64,000 nucleotides of DNA, from the NCBI GenBank assembly GCA_028716165.1, contig JAQUQI010000005.1, positions 24,996 to 88,995 on the forward strand, given 5' to 3'. This DNA is from Candidatus Omnitrophota bacterium. GTDB lineage: Bacteria; Omnitrophota; Gorgyraeia; JABMRG01. Both the position numbers and the translations under genes were made by a program. Each line of letters starts with the position of its first letter. Position 1 is the stretch's first letter. A model generated the notes under the pieces. That model worked only from the letters and a program-made list of their open reading frames with translations. It was not told where the DNA came from and searched no databases. Shown one piece after another: positions 3,001 to 24,534 of this stretch.

Positions 3001-6000
3001 GGAGACTTCCAGCCAAATGCCACAGACCCCATAGCGACCATAGAAGGTTTAAAATTAGCTGTTGCTATGCTGGACAGCCTAAGAAGCAATCCGGAGGCAT
3101 TGAAGCTGTTTAATCTTTTTACAGGCATTAATATTACTTTACAGGGAGCGTTGAACGGAAAACAAATAGATGCCTTGTATGGGTTGATATATACAAAAGA
3201 TGCGGATGGTAAAACTATATTAAAAGATAATGCCGATGACCCTGCTTCCGCTATTCAGGATATTATCACCTTCTACAACAATGTAGTCTCATATGTTATA
3301 GCCATATCAGCCAATCCCAATGCCATGGCCTTAGCAAACAGCGCTTTTGGTTTAGGCCTTACACCCAATATGACGGCAGGCAATATAACCCAGGCCCAGC
3401 TTAAGATATTCTCCAATAGCGACCTTGGCATACTCTATGATGAAGGAGGAGTTTTAAGAGATATTGATACTGTGGTGATGCTTTTTAAAAGGATGGGTGA
3501 GATATACGCTAATTGGGATAGCCAGGCGCAGTCTGCCTTGAGGATATTTTCTGGTGTGGACATAGCGCCAGGCCTAGACTCTTTAAACTCTGATCAGATT
3601 AAAGCTTTTAACACTTTACTATTTGATAGAAATGGTAATCTTTATCTTACTGATGCTGAATTTGATGCCCAAACAGTAGTAGCTAATTTAAAGAGGGTTA
3701 TTTACAAAGTAGGAGATACTTATGTTACAGAAAACGGTTTAGCGGCATACAGCCTGAATAGCAATAGCCCGGGGGTAAAACCCCTCCTGCTTGCGCAGGT
3801 TACAAAAACCGGTAAACATGATAGGATGTATATAATTGATCCGTCTATACCTAATACTGATAATGTCTATGCCGAGATTCTGGAAGGCGATATTGATCTG
3901 GATGCCGGCACTATCAATCTGAAGTTTGTTGTTAATGTAGGGCGTGACAGCGCGGGTAATCGCATATCTTCTGTCACAAACTATGATGGCCGGGAGGTCC
4001 AGAGGGGAACACTTGCGGGCTTTATAGACAGTTCCGGCGGTTATATACCGTCAGATGTTTATATAGACGATTTATCTGATATCGCGGCTGTCAGGATGAA
4101 AATTACTACATCTTTGTTTGGCCAGCAATGGTATGAGGAATATGATTTTAATGGAAACATTGTCAGAACTATAAAGCCTTATCCTGAAACAGGCCAGGCC
4201 GAGGTTGTTAAATACAATGTTAAGGAAAATGGATCATTTCCGGATAGCCGGTCATATTTATATGAATATGATAACAACTTGAACGATATAAAGACTGATA
4301 AGCCTGTTATGGATTTGAGGGAATCAAAAATTATCGGCTATACGGATATGAATGACCCTATTGCTTTTGTTCATGATTCAGTTACCGATTCTTATTGGCA
4401 GGAAATAATAGACCCTGTTGGCAGGGTAAAAGCGAAAGTAATAGGGGATTATAATGCGGCTGCAGGTATTTTTAGTCCTATTGCCATAGAAATCCCTTCG
4501 TATGATGGATATATTGGGGCATCAGCTATCGGCTCCAGCAAGATGTATGAATATTCTAAAGCTAATGGATATAATACCGCCGCGTATGCCGGTTCAAAGG
4601 TTCTTATTGAAACAGGCAAAATAGAAATTATAACAATAGACGGCCGCGTTTGTGTAAGAAGCTTTTACTTTAATAATAAGACCAATGTCAGCTGGCAGGA
4701 GATAAAAGACGCCAGAGGTAATATTATAGCTAAACTCTACCAGTATCCTGATTCGGGTTCATCCGGTTATCGCGCGTCATTCGTTGAAATTATGCAGTAT
4801 GAGCCCGGTATAGGTTCAATAGAAGGCATTGCCCAGAGCGGAAAGCTTTATTTATTCACGGGCAGAGAAGACTTGAGAGATTTTAGCATAAGCCAATATG
4901 CTGATAAACCTGTCCTGACGGAGAGTTATCTTGTAGATCATTCCGGAAAGGCTATTACTACGGTTGAGGCCCTAAAGATGGACAGCCTTGTTTACCAGTA
5001 TGAGAACAAGGTCTCAAAATTAGTATGGCAGGAAGAAAGGGACAACCGTGGACGGCTGATAGCAAAGTATACCGGTGTAAGTTCGCGTGATGACCAAGGC
5101 AACTTGACAGGTTTTTCAAGAAAGGTTGTTGAGAAGATTACGCCCACAGGCATATTGGGTGTCATGCATATATCCGCTACAAGTAATAGTTATTTATATG
5201 AAACCTACCAAGGTGAAAAAGGAAAACATCTTAGTGAATATAGACCCGAATTTGCTTATGTGTCAGCTCAAATTATCAATGATTCCGGCAATGCAGTAGA
5301 TTCGCTTGCAGGTATTGCGCAAGATAATACAGTTACTTATAGATATGTAAATCACAAAACACATTTAGTGTGGGAAGAGGTGCGAGACGGTTTTGGGCGC
5401 ATTATAAGACGCTATGACGGTGAAACTTTAGGGGACAAATCAAGCCCATTGACAGAACCCTTTAAACGTGTTCTTGTTACCGATCAATATTATGAAGGTC
5501 TCATTGGTGATTTTGGTTTAAGTACCAGCAGTGAAGTTTATTCGCTGGATGAGTCCGGTAAGAAAGTCGGTAATCCGATTGACCAATCAGAACTTTTAAG
5601 CAATAAGTTTGAAAAACTTGATTTTGAACAATTGTCCGCAACCGATAGTTTTGGCGCGCTTAAGAGTATTTTTGATGAACAGGGCAGGATATATTATCAA
5701 GGCAGCCGTGCTTACAAAAGATCTGATATACGGGGAGAGGGTTTATTAGAATACCGTGAAATAAAAAATAATACGGGATCTATTGAAGAGAGGTTTGAAG
5801 GTTACAAGGATCCAAGCGGTAAATTCGTTAGCAATCTAAAAAGATACTTTTTCTACCCGGACAGCGATATCTGGCGTTCATTTAGTATTGCCCAAAAAAC
5901 AATTCTTACTATATTTGTTGACGGCAAAGAGATTATTTTTTCTGTTGCCAATAGAACAAGTTTTGATGAACAGACAGGGGATATATCTTATAGCTGTAAG

Positions 6001-9000
6001 AAGGGCAAGGGTATTATTAATTTCCCGCAAATTACATATACCAATCTGGAGCAGAGCCTTGACCTGTTATTTGAAGATGCCAAAGGTTTTGAATATGTGA
6101 CCTATGCATGGCAAGAAATAAAAAATAATAGAGGATGGCTTGTGCAGACGAGAGAAGGGTTTGGCCTTGATGATAAAAATTTTCCGATGGGCGTTCCCAG
6201 ATACATTACTTTCTTAAAAGGTTATTCGTTGGATATACCCATTAGTTTAGAGGCTCACATATATAAATATGATGACAATGCCGGTGAGCGTCTTGACGGA
6301 CAGGTTATCCGGACAAAGCAAACAGAATCAGATTATAGGCACGGTACCAAGGTTGGGTCTCTGCAGGGCCTGCATTTTACAGATAACATAGCTGTATACG
6401 ATGTTAATGACACCCGTATCAACAGAAAGTCTGTTAATAATAGCGGATACAGAATGGACGGCAGGCTTGCTTGGGAGATTCACGCCGGGAAAATGTTTAG
6501 AGATAAGGTTTATTTAACATATTTTAATGAGTTGGAATGCGCTGATTATAGCGCGCGGCTTGTCGGTGTGCTTTCTCCGATTGCGGGTAGCAAGTTAAAT
6601 ATCACAAACCGTCTTGCCGAAATAAAACAAGAACCTTATAAGACACATTATACTATTATGATACCAAGCAAGCCCGGGTCTTATATTGTGTGGGATAAAA
6701 CGCCTGACCAGGCAAAAAATGTTTGGTTTGCTGTTGACCGGTTTATGGATGGCGATGAAATTGATACGGAAAAGGTTTCATCCAAAGGCTTTACTCGGGC
6801 CGTAGAAAACAGGAATATTTTTACAGCCCCATCTGAAGATTCGGCTCTTAACCTCGCGGAACAAGACGGGAAATATTTTTCCGAAGGGGAATTCTTGTAT
6901 GAAATTAAGAATAAATACACCCCTGTTTTGTGGAGATCCTATCATGAAAACAGCATACGAGAATACATTGGCGTTCAATTCAATAAACACATTAAAAATT
7001 CATGGTTATATAATGCTATTGTGGAATCCAATAAACGCGATACATTATCGCCTATCGTTATAACAACGGCAGTATCTTTGGCAGCCATAACATTTTTACT
7101 GCCTTTGGCATTGTTTTTGTTTACATACGTTTTGTCGTATGTTCATTTCAAAAAACTCGGCAAAAAGCAAATCGCGGATACCAAAAGTTCCGGTTTGCCG
7201 GGCGAGGGGGGAGATATTGCTTCGGGCAGGGCGCCATCCGCACAGGCGCCTGGTCACGCGTCTGCTAAAGTTTCGCCTGGCGCGCCTTCTGTGCCTGATC
7301 AAGAAATTAGGGTCAGGGTTGCCGATATAAATCGTCATTTGTATCTTAATAAAGCTTTCACTGATTATTTGATTTCTTTGTACTATAAGACTGATGAAGA
7401 ACTGTTCGCTTTGTTAGATGCCTATTATCCCGACACTCATAGTGAAAAACCCGCCATGCTTTCAGAGCGTTATAAATACAGTATGGTATTGAATAACAAT
7501 ACGGTTTCGCCTGATAGCAAGCAAAGAGCAAAGTATGATTTTGTTGATAGAGTTTTTACAAAACCTATATCATATTTGATGCTTGCAATCATGATTGACC
7601 AGGCTGAAAAATGGGACTGGATGAATAAAGGCGAACTTGATAAAGGTGACAGAATTACAGGCGGCCTTGCAGATAATTTCTGGCCGTTTACGGACAGGGA
7701 TATGAAACGGCTGTTTGAGTACTTTAAAGCAGACGGAAAAGACCCTATCTTGGAATTAGGCCTGTATAAGTATCTTGGCGCAACAACGCTCCAGCAATGG
7801 TATATGGACGCTAATATAAAGGCTCTTAAAGAGAAAGCAGATAAAAATACGACCGAGAAGCAAGCGAAAGCTAATGTTAAGAAAAAGAAAGACCATAAAT
7901 TGGAAAAAGGAAAGCTGATTGAAGAAGCTATCAAACCCGCTAAAGAGTGGCTTGCTAAAAGATATGAATATGAAGGCCTGCATCAGACTGTATACCCTAT
8001 GAAGGTTAATAAGATTATCAATCTCGTCTGGCGTGTTTTCGCTTTAGGCGGGACTGCCGGCTTGATTGCTATGGCAATAACTTCATTTTCATCGTTTGGT
8101 GTTATTGGCCTTGTTTTTACCGGATTGATCTGGTCGTTTGTCCTTGTTGAAACGCATAAAATGCTTCAATATGCGCAGTTTCATAAGAATTGGCTCCAGG
8201 GCCTTCGGACCATGTTTAAGGCCAGGGCTGATTATAAAGGCCCTCTTTCAGAGGCCGAACTAAAAGTAAAAAAGAATTTCTTCAAGGCGTATTTTGGATG
8301 GATGGGGACATACGCGGCTGTTATAGTGGGCTTTAGCCTGCTTTATAGTGTTGGCAGTATACCATGGTTTGGTTGGCTTGCCGCTATCCCTATTTTAGTG
8401 ATTTCTTTGCGGGAATCTTTCAGGAGCTGGTGGTATATTTTTACAGAATCTGCCGCCACGGCAATAAGCCGTAACCAAAGACTGGATAGCCTGAAACGGT
8501 ATGAAGATATAGGCAAACAAGAGCTTGACAGGATACGCCGCAATGAATATTTGAAGGATGTTTTTAAAGATGTTGTTATAGAAGCAACGCTTTCGGTGGA
8601 GTCAGGTTTTCATCTTATATCAAAACAGGAAGAACAGGCACTTATAAAAGTCCTGAACGATCCGAAAGCAAAAAAGTTGCCGGATCTTAAAAGCCCTCAT
8701 GCTAAACAGGAAATCATCAAATGGTTTAATACGATACTTATGTTTGATGAGGATGAATTTAAGAGAATATATGACCAGACGAAACTTGATGAGCTTAATC
8801 CGTCAATATTCAAGGGGACAGGTAAAAAGAGAGTTTTACCCACACGCGATTTTCTTGACGCGGAAGACGGTGAGACAAAGGATGCCAAGGGCGTTATCAC
8901 AGAATATACACCCGCAGGCATTATAAAATCCGGTTTTTATGTGTTTAAAGAAGAATTCAAAGAGTCGTGGGAAATTTTTCTTAGAGATGATATTTTTAAT

Positions 9001-12000
9001 GGTGTAGCAGTTGATGATGCTTTTCTAGAACGCCTGATGGATCCCAAGACAACCCTTAAACAAACCATAGAAGACATCGCGCAAAAATTAGGCAGAACGC
9101 AAAAGGATATAGAAGAATACATAATTTCAAAATGGATAGTATTTCGTGCTGACGGGTATTTAAAGACACTTCTTTTTGCTGAACGCGCGGGAGAAGCGGC
9201 ATACAGGGTTTTAATAAAGCACAAATTTAAAGACGAAAATGGCCGTGATCCAAGTGAAGCGGAAATAAACGATATTTTGAAAAAACATCTTATGTTTATT
9301 CATGTCCATGAAGATATAGATCCGGATATACAGAACTGGGGTGGAAAGAACCCTAGCGAGATTATTAATATATTATGCGATACAAACAGGCCGCAAGGAA
9401 CCTATACGATAAACGGCTGTTCTTATGCTGATACAGGTAGCGAAAAGAGCTTTAATAGAACATTTACGCCCCAGGATTCAAACAAAATAATTCTTTCAAC
9501 GAAAGAATTTAAAGGTCATGATTATCTTAAGGATGAGGCAAAAAGATGGGTTGTTAAAACCGATAAGTGGTCAGTAACAGCTCGTTTTATAGAAAAGTTT
9601 TTGAAAGACATAGTCAAAGAAGACGCTATGATTGTCAATCTGGATAGGGATCATTTTTTCTATCCATCCGAATTTTTCATGCTCCCGTTTTTAGCGCAAA
9701 GATTTACTTCCGAAGATAATCTTGGTTATCTGACCACAAGGCTTGATATGAGGACGGGGTATGTCGCCCCTACCGGCGCCGCGCATCAGGTAGCAGAAGA
9801 TACATGGAATTTAAGGACATTGCTCGCGGAAGCTCTTTTGGGCGCGTCCTCTTATTACGGCCCGGGATTAGTGCGTTGGAGTGTTATGAGGAGCTGGGGC
9901 GCTTATATGTCTAATATAGAGGACACCGCCGCGGCGCACGAAGCTATAATGGATGGCATGCGCGGCGACCATACTACCTGGATTACCTGGGGCAGGCCAA
10001 GAGAAATGGTCGGCGCTTCTATCCTTGATTTTCAGAACAGGTTTGGCGGACTTGTTATTGATGAATTTCTTTCAGTGCATTATCAGAAATTATTAAAAAG
10101 CGATAAGGCGCATTGGACTGAAAAGCTGACAATATTCCAGAATTTTGATTTTTACTTTAACAAACCATTGATACCGCACTTTAATCTACTGATCTTTTTG
10201 TTCTCATTTTTTATTAATTTTACTCCGTTTTCATTTTTTGCCCTGCCGATATTATTTGTAAGCCTTGGGTATCTGTTTTCACAGGCTATAACATCGGGAG
10301 GCATAAGATTATTCCATGCCAAACAGCCGTTTTTAAAGGCCTGGGCGTCTTATTCAAAAATGTTCTGGGGCCTTGTGTTTACTTTCGTTCCTTTGATACC
10401 CATGCACGGCGAGAAGGCATTAAATGCTTTTAAGGGTACCGCAGGAAGATTCAGCAGCGGTATTAAAGATATTTTCTACCCTGCCGTAAAGTTTAGGGAA
10501 TTATACAATCTTTACAAGCCGTCCATTCGCTGGGGAGTCGCATTATTAGGGATATTATGCTTGGCGCCGACACATCCCTGGGCTATTGTGACCCAGATAT
10601 TTTTTCATATATTCCCTATCGCGTTTATTTTTGGGCCTTTTATGAAAAATGCCCCTGCTAACAAGAAGATAGCGGCCTCTGTTTTTGGCGTAAGCGGAGC
10701 ATTGTTTGCTTTAAACGCCATCTTTGCCTTTATGCCTATGCCTTTTGTAGCGGCAGTGGCTTTAGGTATCATTATTGCCGCAGGGCTGACTGGTAAAGAA
10801 AAATATACCAAGGGTATAACGCACGGGTTATTGGCTATAGTATATTATCTGTTAAGAATAGATGATATCTTTTTTGATCGTCCCGGAGCCCGGGGCCCAG
10901 ATGCAAAAGGTGTAAAAACCAAAGTCAAAGACCGCAAGTATAGCCCCTTAATGACATCATTGCTGATATCAGTATCCCTGCCTTTTTATGTCCTGCGGCT
11001 TGATTTATTAGGAGCATTAATAAAAAAACAGGATTCAAAAGCGGAATTAGGGGCTGGTTTGGAATTGGGCCTTGATCTTTCAAGAAAAATATTTAACCCT
11101 TTGAATGAGTCTTCCGGAAAATTTGCCGCTCTCATGAACGATTCACTTAAAGCGCTTATGTCTCTGGCACAATCCGACCAAAACTTAGACGCTTATTTGC
11201 AAAATTTATTAAGCAAAGAAGATAATATTTCTAAAAATATAAGCATAAGGGTATTAAAGAACTTGCCTGTTAACGCGGCAAGGTATCTAAATGATATGGG
11301 TTCTGTTGAAATAGTTTTAAATGAAAGATTTGTGCTTTCTCTTCTTAATGATTATGACTCATACCCTGTTGTAAAATATATACTTGCCGAACGCCTGTTT
11401 CATGAATTAGGCCATGATAATAAGACTGGAACAGCGCAGGAAGAAGTTGACGAAGAGGCCGAGCTTATAGCCAGGGACTTAGAACTTCACTCCATCATAT
11501 CCTCTGATATCCAAAACGAAATCAATAAATATTTTCAAGATAAAAAACCATCTTTTCCTTCAGGTTATTATTTTGTATTTTTAGACAAACTGTCAAAACT
11601 TGGCGATGGCCAAAGATCCGCGAGTATAAGAGATTATATAAGGCAGAACGGCCTGGCTATAGGCAGGCTTAGTGATGATGAAATAAATGCGCTATCGGTT
11701 GAGGAGCTTGTTCAATTGATAGAGAGTGTTCTTGACATGAGCGGGAAAGAAATAGCGAATAAGTTTTTATTGTATTCGGCCGCGCCTGGTACCGGCAAAG
11801 GCGAAGTTATGGACGCTATCTTTACCGAAGGCAAAGGTAAATACGCTCATCTTGTTGATAAGCTGACACTTTATCACACAAGGTCTCCGCGCGTTAAAAA
11901 AGGTATATCCGAAAAAGATGGCATTGCCTATCATTTTAGAGGAGAGGACGAGCTAAGACAGCTTGAAAAAGAGGGCAAGATTATTACCGCTCTTGTAAAT

Positions 12001-15000
12001 AACCAGCTTCAAGGTATGGCATTAGAGACTTTTTACGAAGAAATTACAATAAGGAAATCCGATTTAGCTGATAGCAAAAAGGCTGTTGTGCTTAATGATG
12101 ATATAAAAATAGAGGAAACCGATGAATACATAAAAATCCGCCGAAAAATACGCGGCCTGAATGATATCTTTAAGGGGCCTAAGCTTGCGATACTTGAGGG
12201 CGGCTATGGATGGTTTGAGAGTATTAAAAAAGACCCGCGTTATAAAGAACAACATAAAGATGTTTTAACAATATTTATATCTCCTTTTACTGATGAGGAA
12301 ATAGGTATAAGGGCTCTTAACAATGCCTGGGTTGATTCAAAATTCAAATTGCCGGAAGAAAAGGCGGCTGCTTATAATGAAATTTTTGTTGTAATTAAGG
12401 AATTGCAAAACGAAATAAACCTTGTCAATGATGCCAATTTACAGCAAAGGGTGATAAGAGCCGTAGAGGATAACGCGCCTTCGCTTAAGGATTCCGCGGC
12501 TTGTCACAATGCTCAAGTAATAGATAGCAATGAATTCTTAAGCAGCTTAAAAATTGATATTAAGTCCCCCGGCGCGATAGATAAGGTCAAAGCCCTCGCG
12601 TATGAAGTAAACAGAAGGCTTTCTATGCGGGACGGCGAAATCAAATTCGCTTATTCTATCAAAGACGACCCCGCCGGTTATGACAGGTATCAGAGGGTGC
12701 TGGAAGGCATTATGCAGATAGTTAATAAAAATGAATATGACACCGTTTTGACGAACACATGGGGCTATACTGATAATGCGAGAAATCAAAACATAGAGAA
12801 ACTAACAATGGAATTTTCAAAAAGCTTTTTCTCGCATGTGGTAAAAGGCCTCCGTGATTCAGCCAAGGCCAGTTCAAAGGCTTTTGCAAAACGAGCATAT
12901 CCTGAGGGGTTATTAGATATGGCAAAAAAATATTTCAATTCAGATATAGAGAAAACCCTTAAGCAATTAAAGGATTGGGCAAAAGCTTATAATGACGCTG
13001 TCAAAAACAAAGAGATACTGGATACGGAAGAAATGACAGTGGAAAGACTGCTTAATATAAAAACAGCAGAAGGCCAGACGGATGCTGTAGAATATTTTCA
13101 TATAATTGATTCTGACGGTAATTATATCGGCATCAAGCCAAGGCCTCTTGCGCATCTTTCTAAAGCAAATGAAGATTGGCACAGGAGCGTATTTGTCATC
13201 GTAGTTGATGAACAAGGCAGGATGCTGGTGCAGACTCGTTCTGCCAATAAAGACCATGCCCCTAATGCCAGAGATATTTCTACGGGCGGGCATATGGGCT
13301 TATTGGATGATGGGCGAAATCTCGCTGATACGACAAAAGAAGTTGCCCTAAAAGAACTTGGGGAAGAGTTATTTAACATAGGCAATCTTAAGGATTATAG
13401 TATTTCTCCTGACAGGCTTTCTATGATAAGCGAGGTAGACGGGCTAAGGCTTTCCGTTCAATATACGACCCCTGTTAAAGGGTGGGATAATGAGCGTGTC
13501 ACTGTGTTTCTTTATTGCGCATCAAAAATGGATATAGAAAGAATTGACGCGGCAGCAAAAGCGATAAGTGACGAAAAGGCTTCATTTACCGCTTTTGAGG
13601 GTGAGGTAGCGGCTATGGAATGGGTTGCAATATCAGATGAATGGAATAAATTTAAAAACATGCCAGATTCTGACAGGCGCGTCAATTATGGGGCCGGTTT
13701 TATAAAGTTGTTTACGGATTACGATCGGGATGTATCGGATCCGGATACTGTTTTAGGAAAGATAGCGCGAATGTCTAATGATCTCAAGGCGCTCTATGCC
13801 AAGTTTTCAGAGTACGAAAAGAGGCTTGGCGAAAGATCTATAGGCCAATTTGTTGGGAAACCATTTGATCCTAACAGGCATATTTATCGTCCGAAGGTAG
13901 GCCCTGATGGCGAGATGCTGCCATTTTCCGGCTTCACAGTAGCTAAGAGGATAACGGAAGGGAAGCTGCGTGAGGCATTAATCGCATTTCAAGAAACAAT
14001 GAAAGAAGAGCTTAAAGCCGCGGGCATGGGCGATGTAGTGGCATTTCTTGATCCTGCCTCGCTTCATATGACTATAGCGGATATTGATCCCAGCCGGTCA
14101 TATCCAAAAGGAACAAGTTTTGAACAAGCCGGACAAAGGTTAGGCCAGATAGACAGCGCTTTTAAAGATATAGGCACGCCCGGCGCAGTACAGTCTACGG
14201 TCCGTGGCTTAGGCCTTGGGAATACGATCTCGGCGCTTGTAAGATTTACTCCAGAAGATCTGGACAAGGCCCTTTTGCTTGAAGGCGCTGTTCAGAAATC
14301 CGCGGATGTGTTCAATAGGCAGTTTACCGGGCATATAAGCTTAGGATATATAGCAAAAGAACCTGAAGATTATGACAAGTTTATCGCGATTCTCCAGAAA
14401 TACGCAGATTATAATTTTGGCGAACTGTTAATTGATACAATTGCTTTATTGCATTTTTCCGACATGAATCATTATACGCCTTTAAAGGAGAAGAATTTGG
14501 ATACAGGTGAGATTACAGACCGTTCCGAAGCAAAAGAGTTTTTGGAGTTTTTAAGAAAAGCCCCCGAAACAGCTCAGGATGAGGTTGTAGGTGGAATTTT
14601 CGGCATAATGACGGCAATTTTGGAAAACGACCCCCGGGCTGGAGATGTCAAGAAAGCCCCCGAAACAGCAGAAAGGCCCGCTGACGAGCTCGTAGATGAA
14701 CTGTACCGCAATAAAGAGCCTATGGGTTCTATACGAAATATTGCCGACTTGGAAAAACTGGCATTGGATAATATTAATGATAATATGGTTGTGGAGCCTA
14801 TAAAAAAGGTTCTTATTGATATTCTTAATGATGAGCAGACGGCCGGAGAGGATTATATTTTTGTTCGCGAAATGGCGGCTTATGCGTTGAGAATATTCGC
14901 GGATATCAATATTATACGTTCGCTGATGACCGTTGCTTCGCTTGAAAACGCGATGAACACTGAAACAGCTGGCAATGAGCTGCCGCCAGCCATTGCGGGC

Positions 15001-15519
15001 CTTGATCTTGCCGGCGTTGCCGATTATTCGGTTGAATATCAGCTTGCCTTATCATTACTGGACTATTCGCCTTCCGGACAGCTGTTTGTTAATAGAGACA
15101 AGCAGGCAGTGATAGTTTACTCGGATGCTCTCAAGCAAAGCAGGGCATTGCAGGATATCCTTAGGGCGTCTGTTCAGGACGAGAGAAGGTTCTATTTCGT
15201 TAATAAGACATCCCTAAGTTCCGGTGAATTTTTAGCAGGGGTCGGCCTGGATACTTTAAATTTTGATAATATTATTGAAGCCGAGGATATGTCCGCAGGG
15301 CAAATAGCCGAAACTGTAATGTCCGAATTGGCTAATCAGCACATAACCCAAGCCCGCGTTTTTGCCGCATTGGATCAGGATTTAATGTCGTGGAAAACAG
15401 CTTCTATTGAAACACTCCTCATGCTTCTAAAGGACAAGAGGTTTGAGATAATATCCGATTACAGCCAGCAGCATGCCGAATATATCAGGACGCATGCCCA
15501 GGCGTTAACAGCAGCATAA
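1..15519 (+). CDS. Giant multidomain membrane protein, 5'-partial (>5144 aa). Contains tandem ~68-aa repeats, Rhs/YD-like repeats, three TM clusters, a guanylate-kinase-like domain with degenerate P-loop, a Nudix/IDI-like domain, and a C-terminal module paralogous to the ORF at 16714.
   Basis: One uninterrupted frame from base 1 to the stop at 15517-15519. The ORF track begins at a TTG at 85, but codons 1-84 have no stop, so the true start is upstream. Hydrophobic helices lie at about nt 7040-7140, 7990-8420 and 10150-10960. GK-like motifs are APGTGKG ... LYHTRSPR..DGIAYHF ... ILEGGYGW ... IFISPFTDEEIG. The IDI/Nudix-like stretch is HRSVFVIVVDEQGRMLVQTRS...GGH...KELGEEL. Confidence 0.85.
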   Translation, partial: TYVFNFDAETGRVTTGELKRYADSGRPILIALEYTPGKEGKSPSFKARVFGSQQDMEDAQDLLTSGSQIVLVSKADSFVVHEVQKAGEGYVARLDGNGAPVVWIHAEYNKGNPDVERSGAVSASIQDMRLIADIQSVSKKLRLKGPDGNDITGLAQITDANNLESVLNKDLGEPVQVSTELPDHKYVIMAYNSGTKQVLPFYGKSTFDVYTQFYNSPEHEKEFELLNLLKIGNIIYTDDNSSWLGGFEPQRGGVRRAKITMFNDNKGNEYPVKIGHDAQTRDDLYAYGVLEIDIRDDSFNPTGSWVYYLNKQGLPIDRLPHEEACNLRNVSINFSGKNENAKLLINDIAYGQNAHDKFGAFLPFAADVYDVSGGAPRPVGIHIDDRGRNRIYFEFTSQATQSADGTWSVPALAFCDMYDDQNVYLGQYAFNSIVKWTEGEDGAKAYTYEIGNALSWGVEAQSGPYAGNKFVYILDSTRKKDDGSYIISNEMLGKLGTTERGSHILSGKDLDTLGIDKNSKAVSRILRAAQIYQAGFEAGDPSRVMLFDSSYPGREKEAVAMSQYPGGELEMVIRGPNSKEIARFTFGDSDSYDTNKFGLYRKIVEDFQTDQSEKIKQMALSEGIITIPVKLGNYYIGHRYNNETSLYEHGMFKTLADLAKAGYAIYDEITAAQIFRLDSDTPAKIEFFANDGSSLGRAITDQKLSLSVFDKGGEKIGENVYEFVFDRLTGNVVIGKFLYFIDTKKAEEMLGKMLEALREDPVALEAFNLLTGAGIKDSGKLSQAQLDVLYTLIFKNDLGEFHENAADTEKTLEGLRLASSMLAALRGNQGALEAFNALTNAGFANEGYLADSQLAVLYGMIYDGEGEKHKHAGDPKTTMEGIILAKKALDQLRANPSELAAFNLIAGVNIKLSGPLTAEELTALYTLVYDSDGDFYRDSAGYAYTPIESIKFAGPMLKALRLDLEALKAFNLFTGVNIQPTGKLSQSQINALYGLIYGANGDFQPNATDPIATIEGLKLAVAMLDSLRSNPEALKLFNLFTGINITLQGALNGKQIDALYGLIYTKDADGKTILKDNADDPASAIQDIITFYNNVVSYVIAISANPNAMALANSAFGLGLTPNMTAGNITQAQLKIFSNSDLGILYDEGGVLRDIDTVVMLFKRMGEIYANWDSQAQSALRIFSGVDIAPGLDSLNSDQIKAFNTLLFDRNGNLYLTDAEFDAQTVVANLKRVIYKVGDTYVTENGLAAYSLNSNSPGVKPLLLAQVTKTGKHDRMYIIDPSIPNTDNVYAEILEGDIDLDAGTINLKFVVNVGRDSAGNRISSVTNYDGREVQRGTLAGFIDSSGGYIPSDVYIDDLSDIAAVRMKITTSLFGQQWYEEYDFNGNIVRTIKPYPETGQAEVVKYNVKENGSFPDSRSYLYEYDNNLNDIKTDKPVMDLRESKIIGYTDMNDPIAFVHDSVTDSYWQEIIDPVGRVKAKVIGDYNAAAGIFSPIAIEIPSYDGYIGASAIGSSKMYEYSKANGYNTAAYAGSKVLIETGKIEIITIDGRVCVRSFYFNNKTNVSWQEIKDARGNIIAKLYQYPDSGSSGYRASFVEIMQYEPGIGSIEGIAQSGKLYLFTGREDLRDFSISQYADKPVLTESYLVDHSGKAITTVEALKMDSLVYQYENKVSKLVWQEERDNRGRLIAKYTGVSSRDDQGNLTGFSRKVVEKITPTGILGVMHISATSNSYLYETYQGEKGKHLSEYRPEFAYVSAQIINDSGNAVDSLAGIAQDNTVTYRYVNHKTHLVWEEVRDGFGRIIRRYDGETLGDKSSPLTEPFKRVLVTDQYYEGLIGDFGLSTSSEVYSLDESGKKVGNPIDQSELLSNKFEKLDFEQLSATDSFGALKSIFDEQGRIYYQGSRAYKRSDIRGEGLLEYREIKNNTGSIEERFEGYKDPSGKFVSNLKRYFFYPDSDIWRSFSIAQKTILTIFVDGKEIIFSVANRTSFDEQTGDISYSCKKGKGIINFPQITYTNLEQSLDLLFEDAKGFEYVTYAWQEIKNNRGWLVQTREGFGLDDKNFPMGVPRYITFLKGYSLDIPISLEAHIYKYDDNAGERLDGQVIRTKQTESDYRHGTKVGSLQGLHFTDNIAVYDVNDTRINRKSVNNSGYRMDGRLAWEIHAGKMFRDKVYLTYFNELECADYSARLVGVLSPIAGSKLNITNRLAEIKQEPYKTHYTIMIPSKPGSYIVWDKTPDQAKNVWFAVDRFMDGDEIDTEKVSSKGFTRAVENRNIFTAPSEDSALNLAEQDGKYFSEGEFLYEIKNKYTPVLWRSYHENSIREYIGVQFNKHIKNSWLYNAIVESNKRDTLSPIVITTAVSLAAITFLLPLALFLFTYVLSYVHFKKLGKKQIADTKSSGLPGEGGDIASGRAPSAQAPGHASAKVSPGAPSVPDQEIRVRVADINRHLYLNKAFTDYLISLYYKTDEELFALLDAYYPDTHSEKPAMLSERYKYSMVLNNNTVSPDSKQRAKYDFVDRVFTKPISYLMLAIMIDQAEKWDWMNKGELDKGDRITGGLADNFWPFTDRDMKRLFEYFKADGKDPILELGLYKYLGATTLQQWYMDANIKALKEKADKNTTEKQAKANVKKKKDHKLEKGKLIEEAIKPAKEWLAKRYEYEGLHQTVYPMKVNKIINLVWRVFALGGTAGLIAMAITSFSSFGVIGLVFTGLIWSFVLVETHKMLQYAQFHKNWLQGLRTMFKARADYKGPLSEAELKVKKNFFKAYFGWMGTYAAVIVGFSLLYSVGSIPWFGWLAAIPILVISLRESFRSWWYIFTESAATAISRNQRLDSLKRYEDIGKQELDRIRRNEYLKDVFKDVVIEATLSVESGFHLISKQEEQALIKVLNDPKAKKLPDLKSPHAKQEIIKWFNTILMFDEDEFKRIYDQTKLDELNPSIFKGTGKKRVLPTRDFLDAEDGETKDAKGVITEYTPAGIIKSGFYVFKEEFKESWEIFLRDDIFNGVAVDDAFLERLMDPKTTLKQTIEDIAQKLGRTQKDIEEYIISKWIVFRADGYLKTLLFAERAGEAAYRVLIKHKFKDENGRDPSEAEINDILKKHLMFIHVHEDIDPDIQNWGGKNPSEIINILCDTNRPQGTYTINGCSYADTGSEKSFNRTFTPQDSNKIILSTKEFKGHDYLKDEAKRWVVKTDKWSVTARFIEKFLKDIVKEDAMIVNLDRDHFFYPSEFFMLPFLAQRFTSEDNLGYLTTRLDMRTGYVAPTGAAHQVAEDTWNLRTLLAEALLGASSYYGPGLVRWSVMRSWGAYMSNIEDTAAAHEAIMDGMRGDHTTWITWGRPREMVGASILDFQNRFGGLVIDEFLSVHYQKLLKSDKAHWTEKLTIFQNFDFYFNKPLIPHFNLLIFLFSFFINFTPFSFFALPILFVSLGYLFSQAITSGGIRLFHAKQPFLKAWASYSKMFWGLVFTFVPLIPMHGEKALNAFKGTAGRFSSGIKDIFYPAVKFRELYNLYKPSIRWGVALLGILCLAPTHPWAIVTQIFFHIFPIAFIFGPFMKNAPANKKIAASVFGVSGALFALNAIFAFMPMPFVAAVALGIIIAAGLTGKEKYTKGITHGLLAIVYYLLRIDDIFFDRPGARGPDAKGVKTKVKDRKYSPLMTSLLISVSLPFYVLRLDLLGALIKKQDSKAELGAGLELGLDLSRKIFNPLNESSGKFAALMNDSLKALMSLAQSDQNLDAYLQNLLSKEDNISKNISIRVLKNLPVNAARYLNDMGSVEIVLNERFVLSLLNDYDSYPVVKYILAERLFHELGHDNKTGTAQEEVDEEAELIARDLELHSIISSDIQNEINKYFQDKKPSFPSGYYFVFLDKLSKLGDGQRSASIRDYIRQNGLAIGRLSDDEINALSVEELVQLIESVLDMSGKEIANKFLLYSAAPGTGKGEVMDAIFTEGKGKYAHLVDKLTLYHTRSPRVKKGISEKDGIAYHFRGEDELRQLEKEGKIITALVNNQLQGMALETFYEEITIRKSDLADSKKAVVLNDDIKIEETDEYIKIRRKIRGLNDIFKGPKLAILEGGYGWFESIKKDPRYKEQHKDVLTIFISPFTDEEIGIRALNNAWVDSKFKLPEEKAAAYNEIFVVIKELQNEINLVNDANLQQRVIRAVEDNAPSLKDSAACHNAQVIDSNEFLSSLKIDIKSPGAIDKVKALAYEVNRRLSMRDGEIKFAYSIKDDPAGYDRYQRVLEGIMQIVNKNEYDTVLTNTWGYTDNARNQNIEKLTMEFSKSFFSHVVKGLRDSAKASSKAFAKRAYPEGLLDMAKKYFNSDIEKTLKQLKDWAKAYNDAVKNKEILDTEEMTVERLLNIKTAEGQTDAVEYFHIIDSDGNYIGIKPRPLAHLSKANEDWHRSVFVIVVDEQGRMLVQTRSANKDHAPNARDISTGGHMGLLDDGRNLADTTKEVALKELGEELFNIGNLKDYSISPDRLSMISEVDGLRLSVQYTTPVKGWDNERVTVFLYCASKMDIERIDAAAKAISDEKASFTAFEGEVAAMEWVAISDEWNKFKNMPDSDRRVNYGAGFIKLFTDYDRDVSDPDTVLGKIARMSNDLKALYAKFSEYEKRLGERSIGQFVGKPFDPNRHIYRPKVGPDGEMLPFSGFTVAKRITEGKLREALIAFQETMKEELKAAGMGDVVAFLDPASLHMTIADIDPSRSYPKGTSFEQAGQRLGQIDSAFKDIGTPGAVQSTVRGLGLGNTISALVRFTPEDLDKALLLEGAVQKSADVFNRQFTGHISLGYIAKEPEDYDKFIAILQKYADYNFGELLIDTIALLHFSDMNHYTPLKEKNLDTGEITDRSEAKEFLEFLRKAPETAQDEVVGGIFGIMTAILENDPRAGDVKKAPETAERPADELVDELYRNKEPMGSIRNIADLEKLALDNINDNMVVEPIKKVLIDILNDEQTAGEDYIFVREMAAYALRIFADINIIRSLMTVASLENAMNTETAGNELPPAIAGLDLAGVADYSVEYQLALSLLDYSPSGQLFVNRDKQAVIVYSDALKQSRALQDILRASVQDERRFYFVNKTSLSSGEFLAGVGLDTLNFDNIIEAEDMSAGQIAETVMSELANQHITQARVFAALDQDLMSWKTASIETLLMLLKDKRFEIISDYSQQHAEYIRTHAQALTAA
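2233..3700 (+). repeat. In-frame tandem array inside the giant gene: 5 clear and 2 degenerate copies of a ~201-204 nt (~68 aa) unit, consensus ..ALEAFNLxTGxNI..G.Ls..Q...LY.LIY..DGDF......DP....EGL.LA..ML..LR.NP
   Basis: ALEAFN / ELAAFN / ALKAFN / ALKLFN recur at nt ~2287, 2491, 2692, 2893 and 3094 with a 201-204 nt period. Two further decayed copies sit near 3330 and 3540-3650. Confidence 0.7.
4380..6160 (+). repeat. Dispersed Rhs/YD-like repeats inside the giant gene, motif [SVA]W(Q/E)E..D..G(R/N)(L/I)I..Y, at least 5 copies
   Basis: SYWQEIIDPVGRVKAKV (~4390); SWQEIKDARGNIIAKLYQY (~4691); VWQEERDNRGRLIAKYTG (~5025); VWEEVRDGFGRIIRRYDGE (~5375); AWQEIKNNRGWLVQT (~6110). These resemble the YD-repeat core D..GRL....Y, flanked by Y.YD/Y.YEN motifs. 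Confidence 0.4.
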
Positions 15520-15566: not shown

Positions 15567-16694
15567 ATGAGAAGGAGCATAAAAATATTTGTTTTATACG
15601 CAGGCCTTGCCATTATATCCATGGCAAGCCCCGCTTATTCTTGGCAAAATTTTTTATGCGCCTTAAGGCCTTTATCGCTGGCGCAATCGCAAAGGATTGA
15701 ATCAGATATAAAGTCCGCCTTCTTGTCAATGCGTATTTCAGATATTGTGTTTATCGCGGATAAAGATGGGACTTTGTCAAAGCCTAATGAGCCTGTCCGC
15801 GGTTCCACGGTTAACCTTATAAGTGAAATTTTTAAAATGTACGGCCGTTCGCATATCGTTATCTGCACAGGGGGTATACTGGAAGACAGCGAGAATAATC
15901 TTATAAAGCCTTTGGAGGAAATGATAAAGTCTGGTGATTCCAGTTGGTTTGAGCGTTTAACATATTATTTTATGGCTGGACTGGGTAAAATATCTTGGAA
16001 TAAGCAAGGAATACGAACGATTGAGTATTTTGGAAAACCTTTTTCAGCAGATGACCAGATGTTTATCGTAAGAAATCTGGCTAAATCTCTGGCAGGCAAT
16101 ATAGAGGGCATGCGCCTGCCTGAAAGCATTGATAGGGCCGAAAGCTTTGACGCCTTTAGTAAAATATTTGATGAATTTGTAGCAGAAAATAAAAGCGTTC
16201 TCGGCCATATTGAGATTGCCAACGGCATGGGCCGGCAGTTTACCATAGAGTTTAAAAAATCGTCCGAGAAACAGGCATTGCCTGAATTGCAAAATTCTGA
16301 TTTTACCCGAAAGGTCGCGGAAACTTTTAAAGAACTTCTTGCACAGCGCCCTAACCTCCAGAATCTGCATGTAAGATACGGTGATACATATGTGGATTGC
16401 AGTCCGGTGGATAAAAAAGATGCCATAGAATATTTTTTAAGCGAGAAAAATTTTGAAAGCCCTCTTATTGTGGCGGTTGGAGACGGTAGTAATGATTATG
16501 GGTTTTTATTTAAAGCCGCAGACGATAGGACGAAGCTATCTTTTTTTGTAGGCAAAGGCCATGAAGGCTTGCCCGATCATGTGACTCTATGGCAGACGCC
16601 CGGCCCGGCTGGAACGGAAGAGATACTGTCGTCAATAGTCAAGTCAGTCAAAAGCTCATTTGACATGGAATATAATATAAGAATTTGCGCCTAA
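15567..16694 (+). CDS. Secreted HAD-superfamily (subfamily IIB, Cof/sugar-phosphatase-like) hydrolase
   Basis: N-terminal signal peptide followed by FLCALRPLSL. HAD motif I is DKDGTL (nt ~15760) and motif IV is GDGSNDYGF near the C-terminus. Confidence 0.6.
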   Translation: MRRSIKIFVLYAGLAIISMASPAYSWQNFLCALRPLSLAQSQRIESDIKSAFLSMRISDIVFIADKDGTLSKPNEPVRGSTVNLISEIFKMYGRSHIVICTGGILEDSENNLIKPLEEMIKSGDSSWFERLTYYFMAGLGKISWNKQGIRTIEYFGKPFSADDQMFIVRNLAKSLAGNIEGMRLPESIDRAESFDAFSKIFDEFVAENKSVLGHIEIANGMGRQFTIEFKKSSEKQALPELQNSDFTRKVAETFKELLAQRPNLQNLHVRYGDTYVDCSPVDKKDAIEYFLSEKNFESPLIVAVGDGSNDYGFLFKAADDRTKLSFFVGKGHEGLPDHVTLWQTPGPAGTEEILSSIVKSVKSSFDMEYNIRICA

Positions 16695-16713
16695 TAATAA
16701 AAAGGAGGCCTAT

Positions 16714-19044
16714 ATGCACGGATTAAGGGTATTTAAAAAATCTTTGATATTTGTGTTAATATGCTGTTTTTTTATCAATCAGCAGCTTTTGGCCTGCGAA
16801 TTTTTTTGCCTAAGGCCCGCGTCTGTTAATAACTCCAACACCCCTCTTGTTTTACAGCAACCGGATGATTTAAACAAATTATCTGTAAAAGAACTTGAGG
16901 CCAAACTCCAAAATATTAAGTTGATTAAGCTGAAGGAGCTGAATAAATTGACACCGTCCAGCAAGGAGGAGCTTAAAGATCTCGCTGGCAGGGTAGCTGA
17001 AATGGGCGATTACTTGAGTGCGGTTATACAAAAAGAGTTATTGGGAAATGGTAAAAAATATGGCAATATTATGGAAAAATTTATGCTATTTTCAGCAGGT
17101 CCCGGAACTGGTAAGGATTATGTTTTTTCTAAAACATTTGGAAGAGAAAAAGAAAAAAATGCAAATAAAAAATGGAAGTATCCACACTATACAGATGGGA
17201 GCTTCTTTAAGTTAGTTGAAAAATTGATATTGTATCATTCAAGGCCGTTAAGAACAAAAGAAAATGAAAAAGACGGCTGGGAGTATAATTTTGACACAAG
17301 ACTTGATCATAATCGTATAAACACATTAGAAAATAAAGGAAAAATTAAAACCGCAACAGTAAACAGGCAGTTACAGGGTATGGCAATAAACGGATTTGAT
17401 GAGAAAGGCGTGGTAATAGAGAATGTTATCAATCCTGCAGATTTTAAAGCAGGTGATAAGGTAACAAAAACTATTGAATTTTTGGATGGAGAAAATCTCA
17501 AACAAGATGTTTTGGTTAAAAGGCAAGGCTTCGAGCAAAACCTGAAAATAACCACAGGTATAAAAGATGATGAAATAGGAGATGGCAAGCCCGGCGTCTT
17601 TATTGCGGGTGATATTATTGAAGAGGTTTCTCATAAAGATGTAACAGTTAAAAGGCCTGTAAAAGGCATAATGGATATTATTGATGGGCCCAAACTTGGG
17701 GTGGTTGAGGTAGGATATGGCTGGTTTAGGATGCTTACAGGTCCTCAATCTCCGACGAAGGATGTGTTCAAAATTTTTATAGCACCGTTTGACGAAAAAG
17801 AGATGCGATACATGACTAATGCAAGGAAATGGATTGAGCGCAGATTTACCAGCTATAATGAAAGAGCTTATGCCCATTTGTATATTTCATATAAGATGCA
17901 AGAAGCTAAGAAAGAATTATCAAACTTTAAATTCAAAGAAATAAGAGAATTAAAAAAAGACATAAAAGAACGCCTTAAAAAATTAAATAAAGATGAGGAT
18001 CTTATTGAAAAAGAGTTGGCTGATATTGCAGGCAAGGTTATGGAGTCTGGTATTAAAAAATTTGGATCAGACAAACAGACATATGCGAATCGTTTATTGG
18101 AATACGCAAAGCTTATAGAGAAAGAAGATTTTATAGTGCATCTGAATGAAAGATTGGAAAGCGATTTTGGTGATCCAAATGGAATAACGGACGTTAATCA
18201 AATAAGAGAAGCGAGATTGCTTGCTTACGAGATTAACAGAAGGACCCTTGCAAGGGATAGAGCTGTAGGGTTATCAAATGATGACAAACAGCCTGTTGAG
18301 TATGATAGATATAATAGATTGCTTGAAGGCATAATCCAGATTATGCATCGTAACGAATATGCCCAAAAAGGCGGTTTTGTTGTAATTAATAGGTGGGTAT
18401 TTGATCAAAGCAAGCAACAGGAATATGATGATGTTTTAAAAATACAATTTGCCGGAGCGTTTTTCTCAAATTTGATCGGAAAAATACAAGAAAAAATAAA
18501 ATCTCCTTCAGCAGGCATTGTCCCGGAGCGCGCGCCGGATTATGATGAGCAGTACATTTTAGCCGACGGGCTTCTTCGCTATTTCCCGGAGGGCATAATA
18601 AATGTCCCCGCGGAAAATCAAGCCGTGATAGTTTATTCAGATTCGCTCGCGGAAAGCGCGGCATTGCAGGATATAATCAGAAAGTCGTCAGCAGATGGCA
18701 GGAAATTTTATCTTGTCAATAAACAGGATTCCGTTTCCGCCGAAGATTTTTTAAGAAGCCTTAATATTGACAGGGATATATTTGAAAGCAATGTTTTTTT
18801 GCAAAACTCGCTTTCAGCCGATCAACTGGCGCTTAATATAGCGGCCGTGCTTAATAAAAACGGTATCCGCCAGGGCAGGGTGTTTGCCAGCGCGCAAGAC
18901 GATCTCATTGCCTGGAGCAGACAGGGCCTTATTGAAGCCCTTGTAATGCTACTAAAGGACAAGAAGTTTGAGATAATATCGGATTACAGCCAGCAGCATA
19001 CCGAATATATCAGGACGCATGTCGAGGCGCTGAAAGCGGCATAA
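16714..19044 (+). CDS. Secreted/lipoprotein 776-aa paralog of the giant protein's C-terminal region: GK-like domain with degenerate P-loop plus conserved C-terminal module
   Basis: RBS AAAGGAGG 6 nt upstream of the start. Signal peptide with a possible lipobox LLAC, then EFFCLRPASV. GPGTGKD...LYHSRPLR..DGWEYNF...VEVGYGW...IFIAPFDEKEM aligns with the giant protein's GK-like segment. The last ~150 aa align with the giant protein's C-terminus. Confidence 0.7.
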   Translation: MHGLRVFKKSLIFVLICCFFINQQLLACEFFCLRPASVNNSNTPLVLQQPDDLNKLSVKELEAKLQNIKLIKLKELNKLTPSSKEELKDLAGRVAEMGDYLSAVIQKELLGNGKKYGNIMEKFMLFSAGPGTGKDYVFSKTFGREKEKNANKKWKYPHYTDGSFFKLVEKLILYHSRPLRTKENEKDGWEYNFDTRLDHNRINTLENKGKIKTATVNRQLQGMAINGFDEKGVVIENVINPADFKAGDKVTKTIEFLDGENLKQDVLVKRQGFEQNLKITTGIKDDEIGDGKPGVFIAGDIIEEVSHKDVTVKRPVKGIMDIIDGPKLGVVEVGYGWFRMLTGPQSPTKDVFKIFIAPFDEKEMRYMTNARKWIERRFTSYNERAYAHLYISYKMQEAKKELSNFKFKEIRELKKDIKERLKKLNKDEDLIEKELADIAGKVMESGIKKFGSDKQTYANRLLEYAKLIEKEDFIVHLNERLESDFGDPNGITDVNQIREARLLAYEINRRTLARDRAVGLSNDDKQPVEYDRYNRLLEGIIQIMHRNEYAQKGGFVVINRWVFDQSKQQEYDDVLKIQFAGAFFSNLIGKIQEKIKSPSAGIVPERAPDYDEQYILADGLLRYFPEGIINVPAENQAVIVYSDSLAESAALQDIIRKSSADGRKFYLVNKQDSVSAEDFLRSLNIDRDIFESNVFLQNSLSADQLALNIAAVLNKNGIRQGRVFASAQDDLIAWSRQGLIEALVMLLKDKKFEIISDYSQQHTEYIRTHVEALKAA

Positions 19045-19217
19045 TAAAACCTTAAAGGGCCTTACGCGCCCGGCAGATTATCGCGGTGATATTATGCGGT
19101 TTGATATCCTGTATTGATACCGTTTTCTATATCAGAAAATCGGATTATACCGTGCTTTTTACCAACAATCGCTAAAATTATTTATCAAAAACCGGATAGG
19201 ACACACTAAATAAACAT

Positions 19218-22200
19218 ATGGGTGTGAGAAAAGTTTCGCTAAAAATATCCGCCGTTTTTTTAATGGCAATAACGCTGGCCATATGGGCCAGGCCCGCCTT
19301 TTCTCTGTCCTGCCTTAGGCCGTCATCCCTGGCCGCGTCTAATGATACGGGTATAGTCCTGGATCTGCGGCCTGCGAATGGAGCGAATTTTAACAGTCAA
19401 AAAGCGCTCGCTGATTTTTTACATAAACGCGGGCTTATGCCGCAAGGCGTAAAAAGAAAGACCGCGCGCCTGGCAATCAGGGAAATGGCAAAGGCCCTTG
19501 AGACATACAGATTTGCCCAAGGTTTTAAATATCCTCCGTCAGATGAAGAGATCCTGAACTCGCTTGAGGATACCAACCTGTTCGATCCTTATAGAATCAG
19601 CCATAAATTACCGGTAACAATGGTTTTCAGGAAAGGCGCTTACAACGGAGATTACAAGAATAATATATCAAGAATTATTTTTACCCTAAGCCACGATTTT
19701 TGCGCGTTTGCTTCTATATGCGGGGTTGAAACGGAAGATAATGATATTATTTCTCTTGCCAGCCTGCATTATTGCGAGTTTGGCGACATGCTGTATGATA
19801 TGAGCGATGGAGTGCTTACTTCATTTCTCAAGTCTTGCGTTAGCCAGGCTGTATTTGAAGATACCACCAATAGCTTATGGGGTGTCGGTTTTAACGGGGC
19901 CGCCTGTTGTATTATAAGAAACCCATTGTCTCATAGGGAGAAAAAGGAGATTATCAAGCAATTCGCGGCATCTTTTTCAAACATTGGGATTTTAGGAAAA
20001 ACATTAATACTTAAGCCCGGTAAAAATACGGACGAAGCAGACATGGCTGTTATACAGGCCCGCGCCAACAGCGTTTATGGTTTTGCCAATAAGTCTTCTG
20101 CGGGAAAAGGCAAAGTGTATTTTCCTGTTGCCACATCAAGGGCTTTTGATAAAAACAGTTTCCCCCACACATTATGGAAAATAAGGGCGGCCGGTATAGT
20201 AGAGGCCTTAAACGCGGTTTTGCGCTCTAAAGGCATAAAACCTGAAAATGCCACTGTGATATTATGCGGGAAAACGGTTATAGCGCGTGGGGTTTTTGAT
20301 ATATTATTGTCGCAGAAGACAAAGGTAGTGGGGATATATGACGGTGACCATTGTCTGTATAACAAAAAAGGCATTGTGTCCCAGTATGGCAACAAAAAGG
20401 ATGACAATGTGATATTGGCAGACCTTTTAAGCATGGAGGCCACTGCCCTGGTTTCAACAGACATTTTTTCTCTTATCAGTTCAAAAAATATGCCCAGGCT
20501 TTGCGTGGATGTTATTATTGACGGCATATATCCGGCAATAAATCCTGAAACGTCAGATGCTCAAGCATTACCTGGCAAGATCACATATATACCCGCGTGC
20601 TTAAGCTGTGGCAGCAGCGCCTATGCCAGCGCCAGCGAGTTTTTTAACAGCAATGCCTCCGGTATGAACATAAAAGACCCGAGGATGCACCTTGAAAGAA
20701 GCATATTCAATATTGTCAATTCACTTGTTTTCTTAACAGACCGGGGTATCGTTCAAGGTTCTGTATACAATATATTAACAAAAAAAGCCGAAGAAATACG
20801 GAGCTTAAGGAACAGGTTCATAGAAGTTCCTACGGAAGAAGTCATAGAAGAGGCTGAATTTGAAATGCTTTACGGCTTGCCGGAAAGAATAGCCTTTTTG
20901 CGCGCTGCCACAAATATTGCCCTGACAAAAGTATTGTTTTCCGGTATCAGCTCCAATGCTCTTATGGATATTATTATGTCCGCTCGCTCCGATATGCTTG
21001 AAAAGAGAACGGCTGTTTATATATTAGGTAAAAAACAGGACCTTTCGTCAGTTGCTGAATTAATGCGGATAATATCGGATGAGGATGAGGACATAGACTT
21101 GAGGATAAACGCTATAGAGGCTGTCGGAAACATGAGGGCCGGAAGCGCGATAGAGCTCTTGCTTAAAATATGCAAACAAAAGAGTAAAGGTACGGATTTG
21201 TCCGGTTGGGCATCCTGGGCCCTTGAAAAGATGGGAGTCGCATTAAACGGGCAGAAAAGCCCGGTTAAAGAAGGAATATCATTCAGCCGCGCGCTGGAAG
21301 AATTGCCGAAAAAGGCGGCGGACGCTTGGTTTAATAATATACAAAAAGAGGGCAATAAGCCTGTTATGATCGGTTTTTCGGGGTATTCGGCAAGCGGTAA
21401 ATCGTACTTCGCGTCTTCTTTTGTCAAAAAATTGAAACTGATTATTGCGTCCCAACGGCGCAGATTAGATAAAGCTCCGGATAAAGCTGTGCATGAGATG
21501 CCCGCTATATACCGGCTTGATATGGATGAATACCTTATTCCAAAAAATGAGCGTTTGGCGCGCGCGAAAAGTTTAGGTTATGAGTTGTCAATTTTTATTA
21601 AATACGAAATAAAAAGATACTATGAAGACATGAAGGCCTTTGCCGCGGGCAAGCCTATATATGTCCCGCATTTTAATCAGGTAACGCGCCAGCGCCAGCG
21701 TTTGGCTCAAAGCCAGATTGACCTGGCAAGGATTGCTTTGGCGCGGGGCGCCGAAAGCCATGAACGCTATATAGACGGCCGAAAACATACTATTGTTTAT
21801 AGCCCTGCGATCAGCAGTGAAATGGGTATAATGGCTTATATAGACCTTGAGTCAGGGGATATCCTTACGCGTTTAGACCCGGAGAACAATATCCTTATAG
21901 TTGAGGGCATATTGGCCCTTACGAGCGAATCTGTCAACAGCTTGTTTTATGAAAGCATTTTTATAAAAGCGCCATGGACATTAAGATACTTGCGGGACAT
22001 TGAGCGTTATATCGCAACGGGTAAATACGCTTCTTTGACAGTGCAGCAGGTAAAAGAGAAGTTTGAGAGAAAGCGCGCTGCGGAAGAAACGCGTTTTATA
22101 TCCGCCCAGGAATCTATAAGTTCGCGTGTTGTGGATACCGCGGACAGCCCAACTGGCGCTTATGTTGAAGCCTTTACCGGAGCTTTAGACCTTTACAGGC

Positions 22201-23510: not shown

Positions 23511-23788
23511 TACTGCGCAGTTATAATCCAGGCGATATTTTGATAAGTAAGGCACCGTCTTAAAACGCGCGCTTGCCGCTCTTTATTATTTTTTCGGTTT
23601 TTTTCGTGTATCCATGGTGAAAATCTGACCGGGAAGGAGGGAAAAAGTAAAAGCTGATTTTTCAGGATTTTAGCTTGACGCATATTGCTGATTTTGATAA
23701 ACTAATAACACTTATCCTTTAAAAGGATCAAAATAACCGCTGTTTCTGCGTTTAATGCATGAGAACTTATATAAAGGAGGAACGGATA

Positions 23789-24433: not shown

Positions 24434-24465
24434 TAAACAATCCGCATGCTTTTTCCGAGCTGCAA

Positions 24466-24520: not shown

Positions 24521-24534
24521 AATATGAGGGATTT

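Follow-up and report, generated by a model that had tools for sequence, protein, structure and literature searches.

A Nudix-fold domain of the YfcD, type-1 IDI and DR_0079 branch retains its family-conserved residues in a giant protein of Omnitrophota

NUDIX domains are among the consistent domains described for the giant proteins of Omnitrophota, the 'Archaeovorins' and multi-enzyme metabolic giants (bioRxiv 10.1101/2023.11.21.568195; 10.64898/2026.06.07.730766). The published work on these proteins does not include an analysis of the Nudix subfamily or of its motif state. Here, we analyzed one such domain in a stretch of 64,000 nucleotides (nt) from a Candidatus Omnitrophota bacterium (contig JAQUQI010000005.1, positions 24,996 to 88,995; hereafter the window), which adds one more case to a context that is already known. 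All features lie on the plus strand unless stated otherwise. As delimited by a family hidden Markov model (HMM), the domain extends over nt 13069-13728, corresponding to amino acids (aa) 4357-4576 of a giant open reading frame (ORF). A first-pass annotation, made from the sequence alone, had placed a domain of the Nudix or type-1 isopentenyl-diphosphate isomerase (IDI) kind at 13170-13560 and regarded it as a pseudo-enzyme with altered catalytic motifs. We confirmed a genuine Nudix-fold domain of the branch formed by YfcD, type-1 IDI and DR_0079, in which all family-conserved residues are retained. Judged from these residues, the domain is probably a catalytically competent, divalent-metal-dependent pyrophosphohydrolase with a small diphosphate-containing metabolite as substrate.

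The described members of this branch differ from the window domain in several respects. YfcD of E. coli (PDB 2FKB; NF011922), a putative Nudix hydrolase, is a free-standing protein of 180 aa with a canonical 23-residue Nudix box (GX5EX7REAEEELGI) and a GGV sequence, whereas the window domain forms part of a chain exceeding 5000 aa, has a non-canonical box, and carries a histidine at the corresponding place (GGH). The YfcD equivalog cut-off was not reached (38.8 vs. 152 bits); YfcD is thus the closest relative, not an equivalog. DR_0079 of Deinococcus radiodurans (PDB 2O5F/1Q27), which prefers CDP/CTP-type substrates, falls into the same clade, with E = 9e-17 for the profile and E = 9e-8 in Foldseek. 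It combines GGA with the canonical x7 spacing of the box, in contrast to GGH and x14 in the window, and there was no sign of a shared substrate. In type-1 IDI (Escherichia coli Idi, 1NFS/1HX3; human IDI1, 2DHO/2I6K), the catalytic Cys67 is aligned with Gly74 and Tyr104 with a leucine of the window domain, where residue numbering starts at aa 4356 (nt 13066).

Assignment to this branch was based on profiles, homologues, and a structural model. NCBIfam matches were obtained for YfcD (E = 7.3e-10) and for IDI (PRK03759, E = 2e-7; TIGR02150, E = 2.7e-5). The Pfam profile NUDIX (PF00293) scored 20.2 bits with a 300-aa slice and 21.4 bits with the trimmed 215-aa domain, the gathering score being 21.1. 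With the C-terminal 1199 aa as query, 1.8 billion representatives were searched exhaustively with HMMER; 365 homologues were obtained, of which 125 had E ≤ 1e-10. From these homologues, 36 copies of the Nudix domain were extracted and 31 were aligned (alignment A1), which is the basis of all residue counts given below. PF00293 was matched by 31 of the 31 aligned copies (best E = 2.6e-21), so that the Pfam alignment proposed in the first-pass annotation was borderline for the window domain itself and positive for its homologues. A profile built from A1 recognized YfcD (9e-22), the IDI proteins of E. coli and Salmonella (~1e-19 to 5e-20), and DR_0079 (9e-17), but MutT-type proteins only at ~1e-8. 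Structural modeling, which had likewise been suggested, gave a Nudix fold: the AlphaFold2 model calculated on A1 reached a predicted local distance difference test (pLDDT) of 90.6 and a predicted template modeling score (pTM) of 0.88. It displays the alpha/beta/alpha architecture with the loop-helix-loop motif and begins with the beta-hairpin that characterizes IDI and YfcD, and the top ranks in Foldseek were human IDI1/2, E. coli IDI, DR_0079, and YfcD.

In view of these results, a chance resemblance or a mis-framed sequence without any real domain can be practically dismissed, being refuted already by the HMMER homologues, the profile matches, and the model. What could be cited in its favor is that a word-indexed search for homologues of the domain by itself found no match and that short ORFs on the minus strand (12967-13293 and 13122-13385) overlap the region; the latter were judged spurious because the plus-strand frame is conserved. 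A six-frame scan of the window with the family HMM detected neither a second Nudix domain nor a degenerate one. The core of the first-pass description therefore stands, including the sequence strings on which it was built, i.e. WHRSVF (nt 13177-13194), TGGHMG (13282-13299), and KELGEEL (13351-13371). Its interval lies in the frame of the giant ORF, with a start one base out of frame, as the codon begins at 13171.

The Nudix box itself (nt 13288-13377) was assigned from the alignments and from the secondary structure of the model. It reads G75-HMGLL-D81-x14-K96-E97-L-G-E100-E101-L-F103-N104. Its spacing, G75-x5-D81-x14-K96-E-x2-E-E-x-F-N, is not that of the canonical 23-residue motif GX5EX7REUXEEXGU. 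In the homologous register, G75-x5-D81-x14-KELGEE, the x14 segment contains an eight-residue insertion (D82-T89) that is confined to a subclade of six members, namely the window domain, P0001, the second domain of L001/P0002, P0006, P0007, and P0017. G75 is invariant, whereas position 81 is Asp in 10/31 and Glu in 10/31 copies, and position 96 is Arg in 20/31 and Lys in 6/31. In the AlphaFold2 model, a strand (73-76) and a loop (77-85) are followed by a long helix (86-103); the additional residues lengthen the Nudix helix to this extent in the model.

Two other registers were considered and rejected. The first-pass annotation had read the box as G-x4-D-x7-K, one residue short of the canonical motif. 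This would correspond to G83-x4-D88-x7-K96, yet G83 and D88 fall within the subclade-specific insertion and are not conserved; even the orthologue P0001, with 73% identity, has Pro and Ile at these positions. The HMMER pairwise alignment to YfcD placed KELG opposite EELG, a shift of the helix by four residues that would leave a single Nudix glutamate. It was overturned by the 31-sequence alignment together with the Omnitrophota orthologue L001 (E-x7-RELEEEL), so that KELGEE is to be equated with REUXEE.

With this register, conservation could be assessed residue by residue. Four positions, Q56, R58, G75, and E101, are invariant in A1 (31/31), and H39, K62, H76, A94, E97, and E100 are conserved in at least 90% of the copies. 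All three glutamates of REUXEE, whose conservation had been named as a further check, are present on the Nudix helix (E97 in 28/31, E100 in 28/31, and E101 in 31/31 copies). Upstream of the box lie H30 (nt 13153-13155) and W38-H39-R40 (13177-13185), together spanning 13153-13185, with H30 kept in 27/31 and H39 in 30/31 copies. These are followed by Q56, R58, and K62 (13231-13251; 31/31, 31/31, and 29/31) and by G74-G75-H76 (13285-13293), of which H76 is kept in 30/31. Downstream, D141-N142-E143 (13486-13494) is aligned with E114-N115-E116 of IDI; this triplet is a candidate for providing a metal ligand and a general base. E143 is kept in 20/31 copies, including 6/6 sequences of the subclade to which the window belongs. 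Read off at 15 key positions, the window sequence is H H Q R K G H D K E E E D N E. At 14 of them, it has the commonest residue of the family; the exception is position 96 with the recurrent Lys variant (6/31), i.e. the change from Arg to Lys that had been noted correctly in the first-pass annotation.

These data bear directly on the notion of a pseudo-enzyme, in which the Nudix fold would be kept as a non-catalytic module for ligand binding, regulation, or scaffolding. Non-enzymatic Nudix domains do exist (PMC5389931), the Pfam score is borderline, and the box is non-canonical in its x14 spacing, its change from Arg to Lys, and its terminal Phe in place of Gly. Moreover, degenerate copies were found in three paralogous giant proteins (P0078, 726-904; P0075, 48-260; and P0009, 3869-4079). 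In these copies, position 97 is Ile or Leu, position 100 is Lys, and D141-N-E143 is lost, all of these changes occurring together. Decay in this family can thus be recognized from these three copies, and its signs are absent from the window: all three REUXEE glutamates, R58, K62, H39, H76, and D141-N-E143 are present and conserved throughout the family.

Each deviation of the box is also found among the enzymes listed by Srouji et al. 2017 (PMC5389931). The examples comprise (i) E. coli NudK/YffH, with the box GX4DX7KEX2EEXGU; (ii) NUDT16, with Asp for Glu (GX5DX8RE...); (iii) DR_0079, in which the final Gly is absent (...EEXNU); and (iv) human IDI1, with x14 spacing. NudK, a GDP-mannose diphosphatase (PDB 1VIU), is active with the very pattern that had been called altered in the window, and DR_0079 is an active hydrolase even though its terminal Gly is replaced, as it is in the window. 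Because every deviation is known from an active Nudix hydrolase or from IDI1, the changes in the box are no ground for assuming a pseudo-enzyme, and this part of the first-pass annotation could not be upheld. We consider a non-catalytic role possible but unlikely.

Whether the domain could be a type-1 isomerase was judged from the residues specific to IDI. In sequence and fold, the window domain resembles IDI as much as it resembles YfcD. H39 corresponds to H32 of IDI, H76 to H69, D141 to E114, and E143 to E116, and H25 falls within one residue of H30, so that a catalytic Glu and equivalents of the metal ligands (H, H, H, D/E, E) appear to be present according to the alignment. R51, K55, and E87 of IDI likewise correspond to R58, K62, and E101. 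In IDI structures, R51 and K55 bind the diphosphate. The catalytic Cys of the NxxC-x-HP motif (C67 in E. coli) is absent, as the first-pass annotation had recognized; in place of it, G, S, A or T is found across the family of the window. Furthermore, the scores were far below the two equivalog cut-offs (30.9 vs. 127 bits and 24.1 vs. 105.8 bits) for type-1 IDI, an enzyme represented by TIGR02150 and NF002995, and the family of the window maintains the full set of REUXEE glutamates (RExxEE), which are lost in IDI (RRxxYE in E. coli and RRxxAE in human). Together with the Leu opposite Y104, these differences make an isomerase highly improbable.

For the pyrophosphohydrolase that we favor, a tentative mechanism can be outlined from the residues retained. 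R58, K62, and K96 would hold the diphosphate of the substrate, while the long Nudix helix would provide E97, E100, and E101 as ligands of Mg2+ or Mn2+. E143 may activate the attacking water, and possibly an IDI-like metal site is formed in addition by His30, His39, His76, Asp141, and Glu143.

Several observations weigh against this assignment. Neither for YfcD, the closest structural relative, nor for COG1443 Nudix hydrolases did a literature search return a reported activity or substrate, and PDB 2FKB was deposited just as a 'possible Nudix hydrolase'. The Pfam score lies at the threshold, Phe replaces the Gly of ExGU, and the x14 spacing is that of the isomerase IDI1, unlike that of typical hydrolases. 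Conservation, moreover, reflects selection on residues and not which reaction is catalyzed; many of these residues would also be conserved if a ligand were bound in a metal-dependent manner but not turned over.

A more far-reaching version of the hydrolase assignment holds that the domain represents an uncharacterized Nudix subfamily, which unites an IDI-type His/His/His/Asp/Glu metal site with the full Nudix-box glutamates and which, as part of a C-terminal cassette with guanylate-kinase-like and 2H-phosphoesterase domains, could process a diphosphate metabolite new to Nudix enzymes. Free-standing members of the group with GGH and REUXEE also score below both the IDI and the YfcD equivalog cut-offs, and for this reason we regard the subfamily as uncharacterized. 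The complete proposal appears rather improbable at present; under it, conceivable substrates would be derivatives of guanine nucleotides or intermediates linked to a prenyl diphosphate.

The domain is one of several enzyme domains in a soluble C-terminal region, and the protein as a whole is probably a membrane giant of the Omnitrophota type. Its ORF (nt 1-15519) comprises at least 5172 codons, without an in-frame stop from nt 1 up to the stop at 15519. As the frame is open at the first base of the window and the 5′ end lies beyond it, the assignment to this type, i.e. at least 5172 codons with hydrophobic clusters and with kinase-like, Nudix, and 2H domains, refers to the visible portion. From N- to C-terminus, a repeat-rich region is followed by transmembrane clusters and a soluble region of ~1500 aa. 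A hydropathy scan located hydrophobic, transmembrane-like clusters at aa 2360-2378, 2672-2716, 2772-2801, 3390-3430, and 3512-3592 (nt 7078-10780). The published work acknowledges that the membrane topology of these giants is ambiguous; from the nucleotide-dependent chemistry alone, we infer a cytoplasmic location of the C-terminal enzyme region.

The stretch upstream of the Nudix domain (nt 11767-13065) comprises a kinase-like region and, after it, a linker of ~180 aa. The kinase-like region includes a guanylate-kinase-like P-loop domain (11767-12030; TIGR03263, E = 6e-4; PF00625 in the homologue P0006) with the motif APGTGKG at 11782-11802, in which Lys is followed by Gly and not by Ser/Thr. 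A TRSPR...E..G..YHF signature in the same region resembles guanosine monophosphate binding. Directly 3′ of the Nudix domain, a 2H phosphoesterase domain of the DUF1868 or Atu0111-like type was found (13867-14478; LHMTIAD at 14062-14082 and GHISLGY at 14329-14349). It scored 20.7 bits with PF08975 (gathering score 21) and matched Atu0111 (PDB 2fsq) with E = 0.007, both HxT/S motifs being aligned. The order of kinase-like P-loop, linker, and Nudix domain recurs in P0001, P0002, P0006, P0007, P0008, and P0009, and the 2H phosphoesterase follows in the window, P0001, and P0002. Other partners in the cassette vary across the homologues and include HAD, ROK kinase, radical SAM, methyltransferase, and GT5 domains.

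In the species-level genome collection, the sole relative was found in a Candidatus Omnitrophota single-cell genome (L001). Its protein of 2962 aa shares 42-48% identity with the window protein in three blocks (blastp), and 46-48% where only the conserved blocks are considered. The order of the kinase-like, Nudix, 2H, and C-terminal domains is common to both, and L001 has a GT5 starch-synthase and an MbnB-like domain in addition. L001 contains two tandem Nudix domains, compared to one in the window protein, which points to gain or loss of modules within the cassette. Each Nudix domain of the pair follows the same leader ('YFN.D...LLNIK...ATEYF'); the first, at L001 3934-4700, has a short-loop REAQEELGL box and no counterpart in the window protein. 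The second 2H motif of L001 reads GKIGLAY and has lost its His, whereas the window keeps both HxT/S motifs; the 2H domain may be degenerate in the L001 lineage.

Further features were noted in other parts of the giant ORF. In the N-terminal part, a helical unit of ~60 aa is repeated about seven times ('..ALEAFNLLTG..LSQAQLDVLY..'; nt ~2250-3400) ahead of YD/RHS-like repeats ('YDFNGN', 'WQEIxDxxGRxIAK'; nt ~4140-6200), neither type being found by Pfam. A soluble segment of ~590 aa flanked by hydrophobic clusters had no Pfam or PDB sequence match, and a suspected glucan synthase likeness of the membrane-embedded region (nt 8401-11100) was dropped as unsupported by Pfam and a PDB sequence search. 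A zincin-like HELGHD motif at nt 11401-11418 (context AERLFHELGHDN) is kept in L001; its region matched no Pfam peptidase family. The last ~185 aa (nt ~14955-15516, with RFEIISD at 15439-15459) constitute a conserved domain without a Pfam match, which is found at the very end of more than 40 large proteins that otherwise differ and possibly has a role in targeting or assembly. The genes 3′ of the giant ORF (nt 15567-34434) are all on the same strand and encode a HAD-like hydrolase, a 1430-aa protein with HEAT and PRK/uridine-kinase-like parts, two GH2-like TIM-barrel proteins, an ABC sugar-uptake system (solute-binding protein and two permeases), and a PilZ-domain protein.

What appeared by eye as a motif broken with respect to GX5EX7REUXEEXGU is how the box normally looks in a conserved subfamily, and the Nudix domain should not be counted among pseudo-enzymes. 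If active, it would be one defined catalytic module in a largely unannotated C-terminal enzyme chain of kinase-like, Nudix, and 2H phosphoesterase domains. Being small and predicted to fold well (pLDDT 90), it could be expressed separately and would then also offer an entry to the biochemistry of these otherwise intractable giants.
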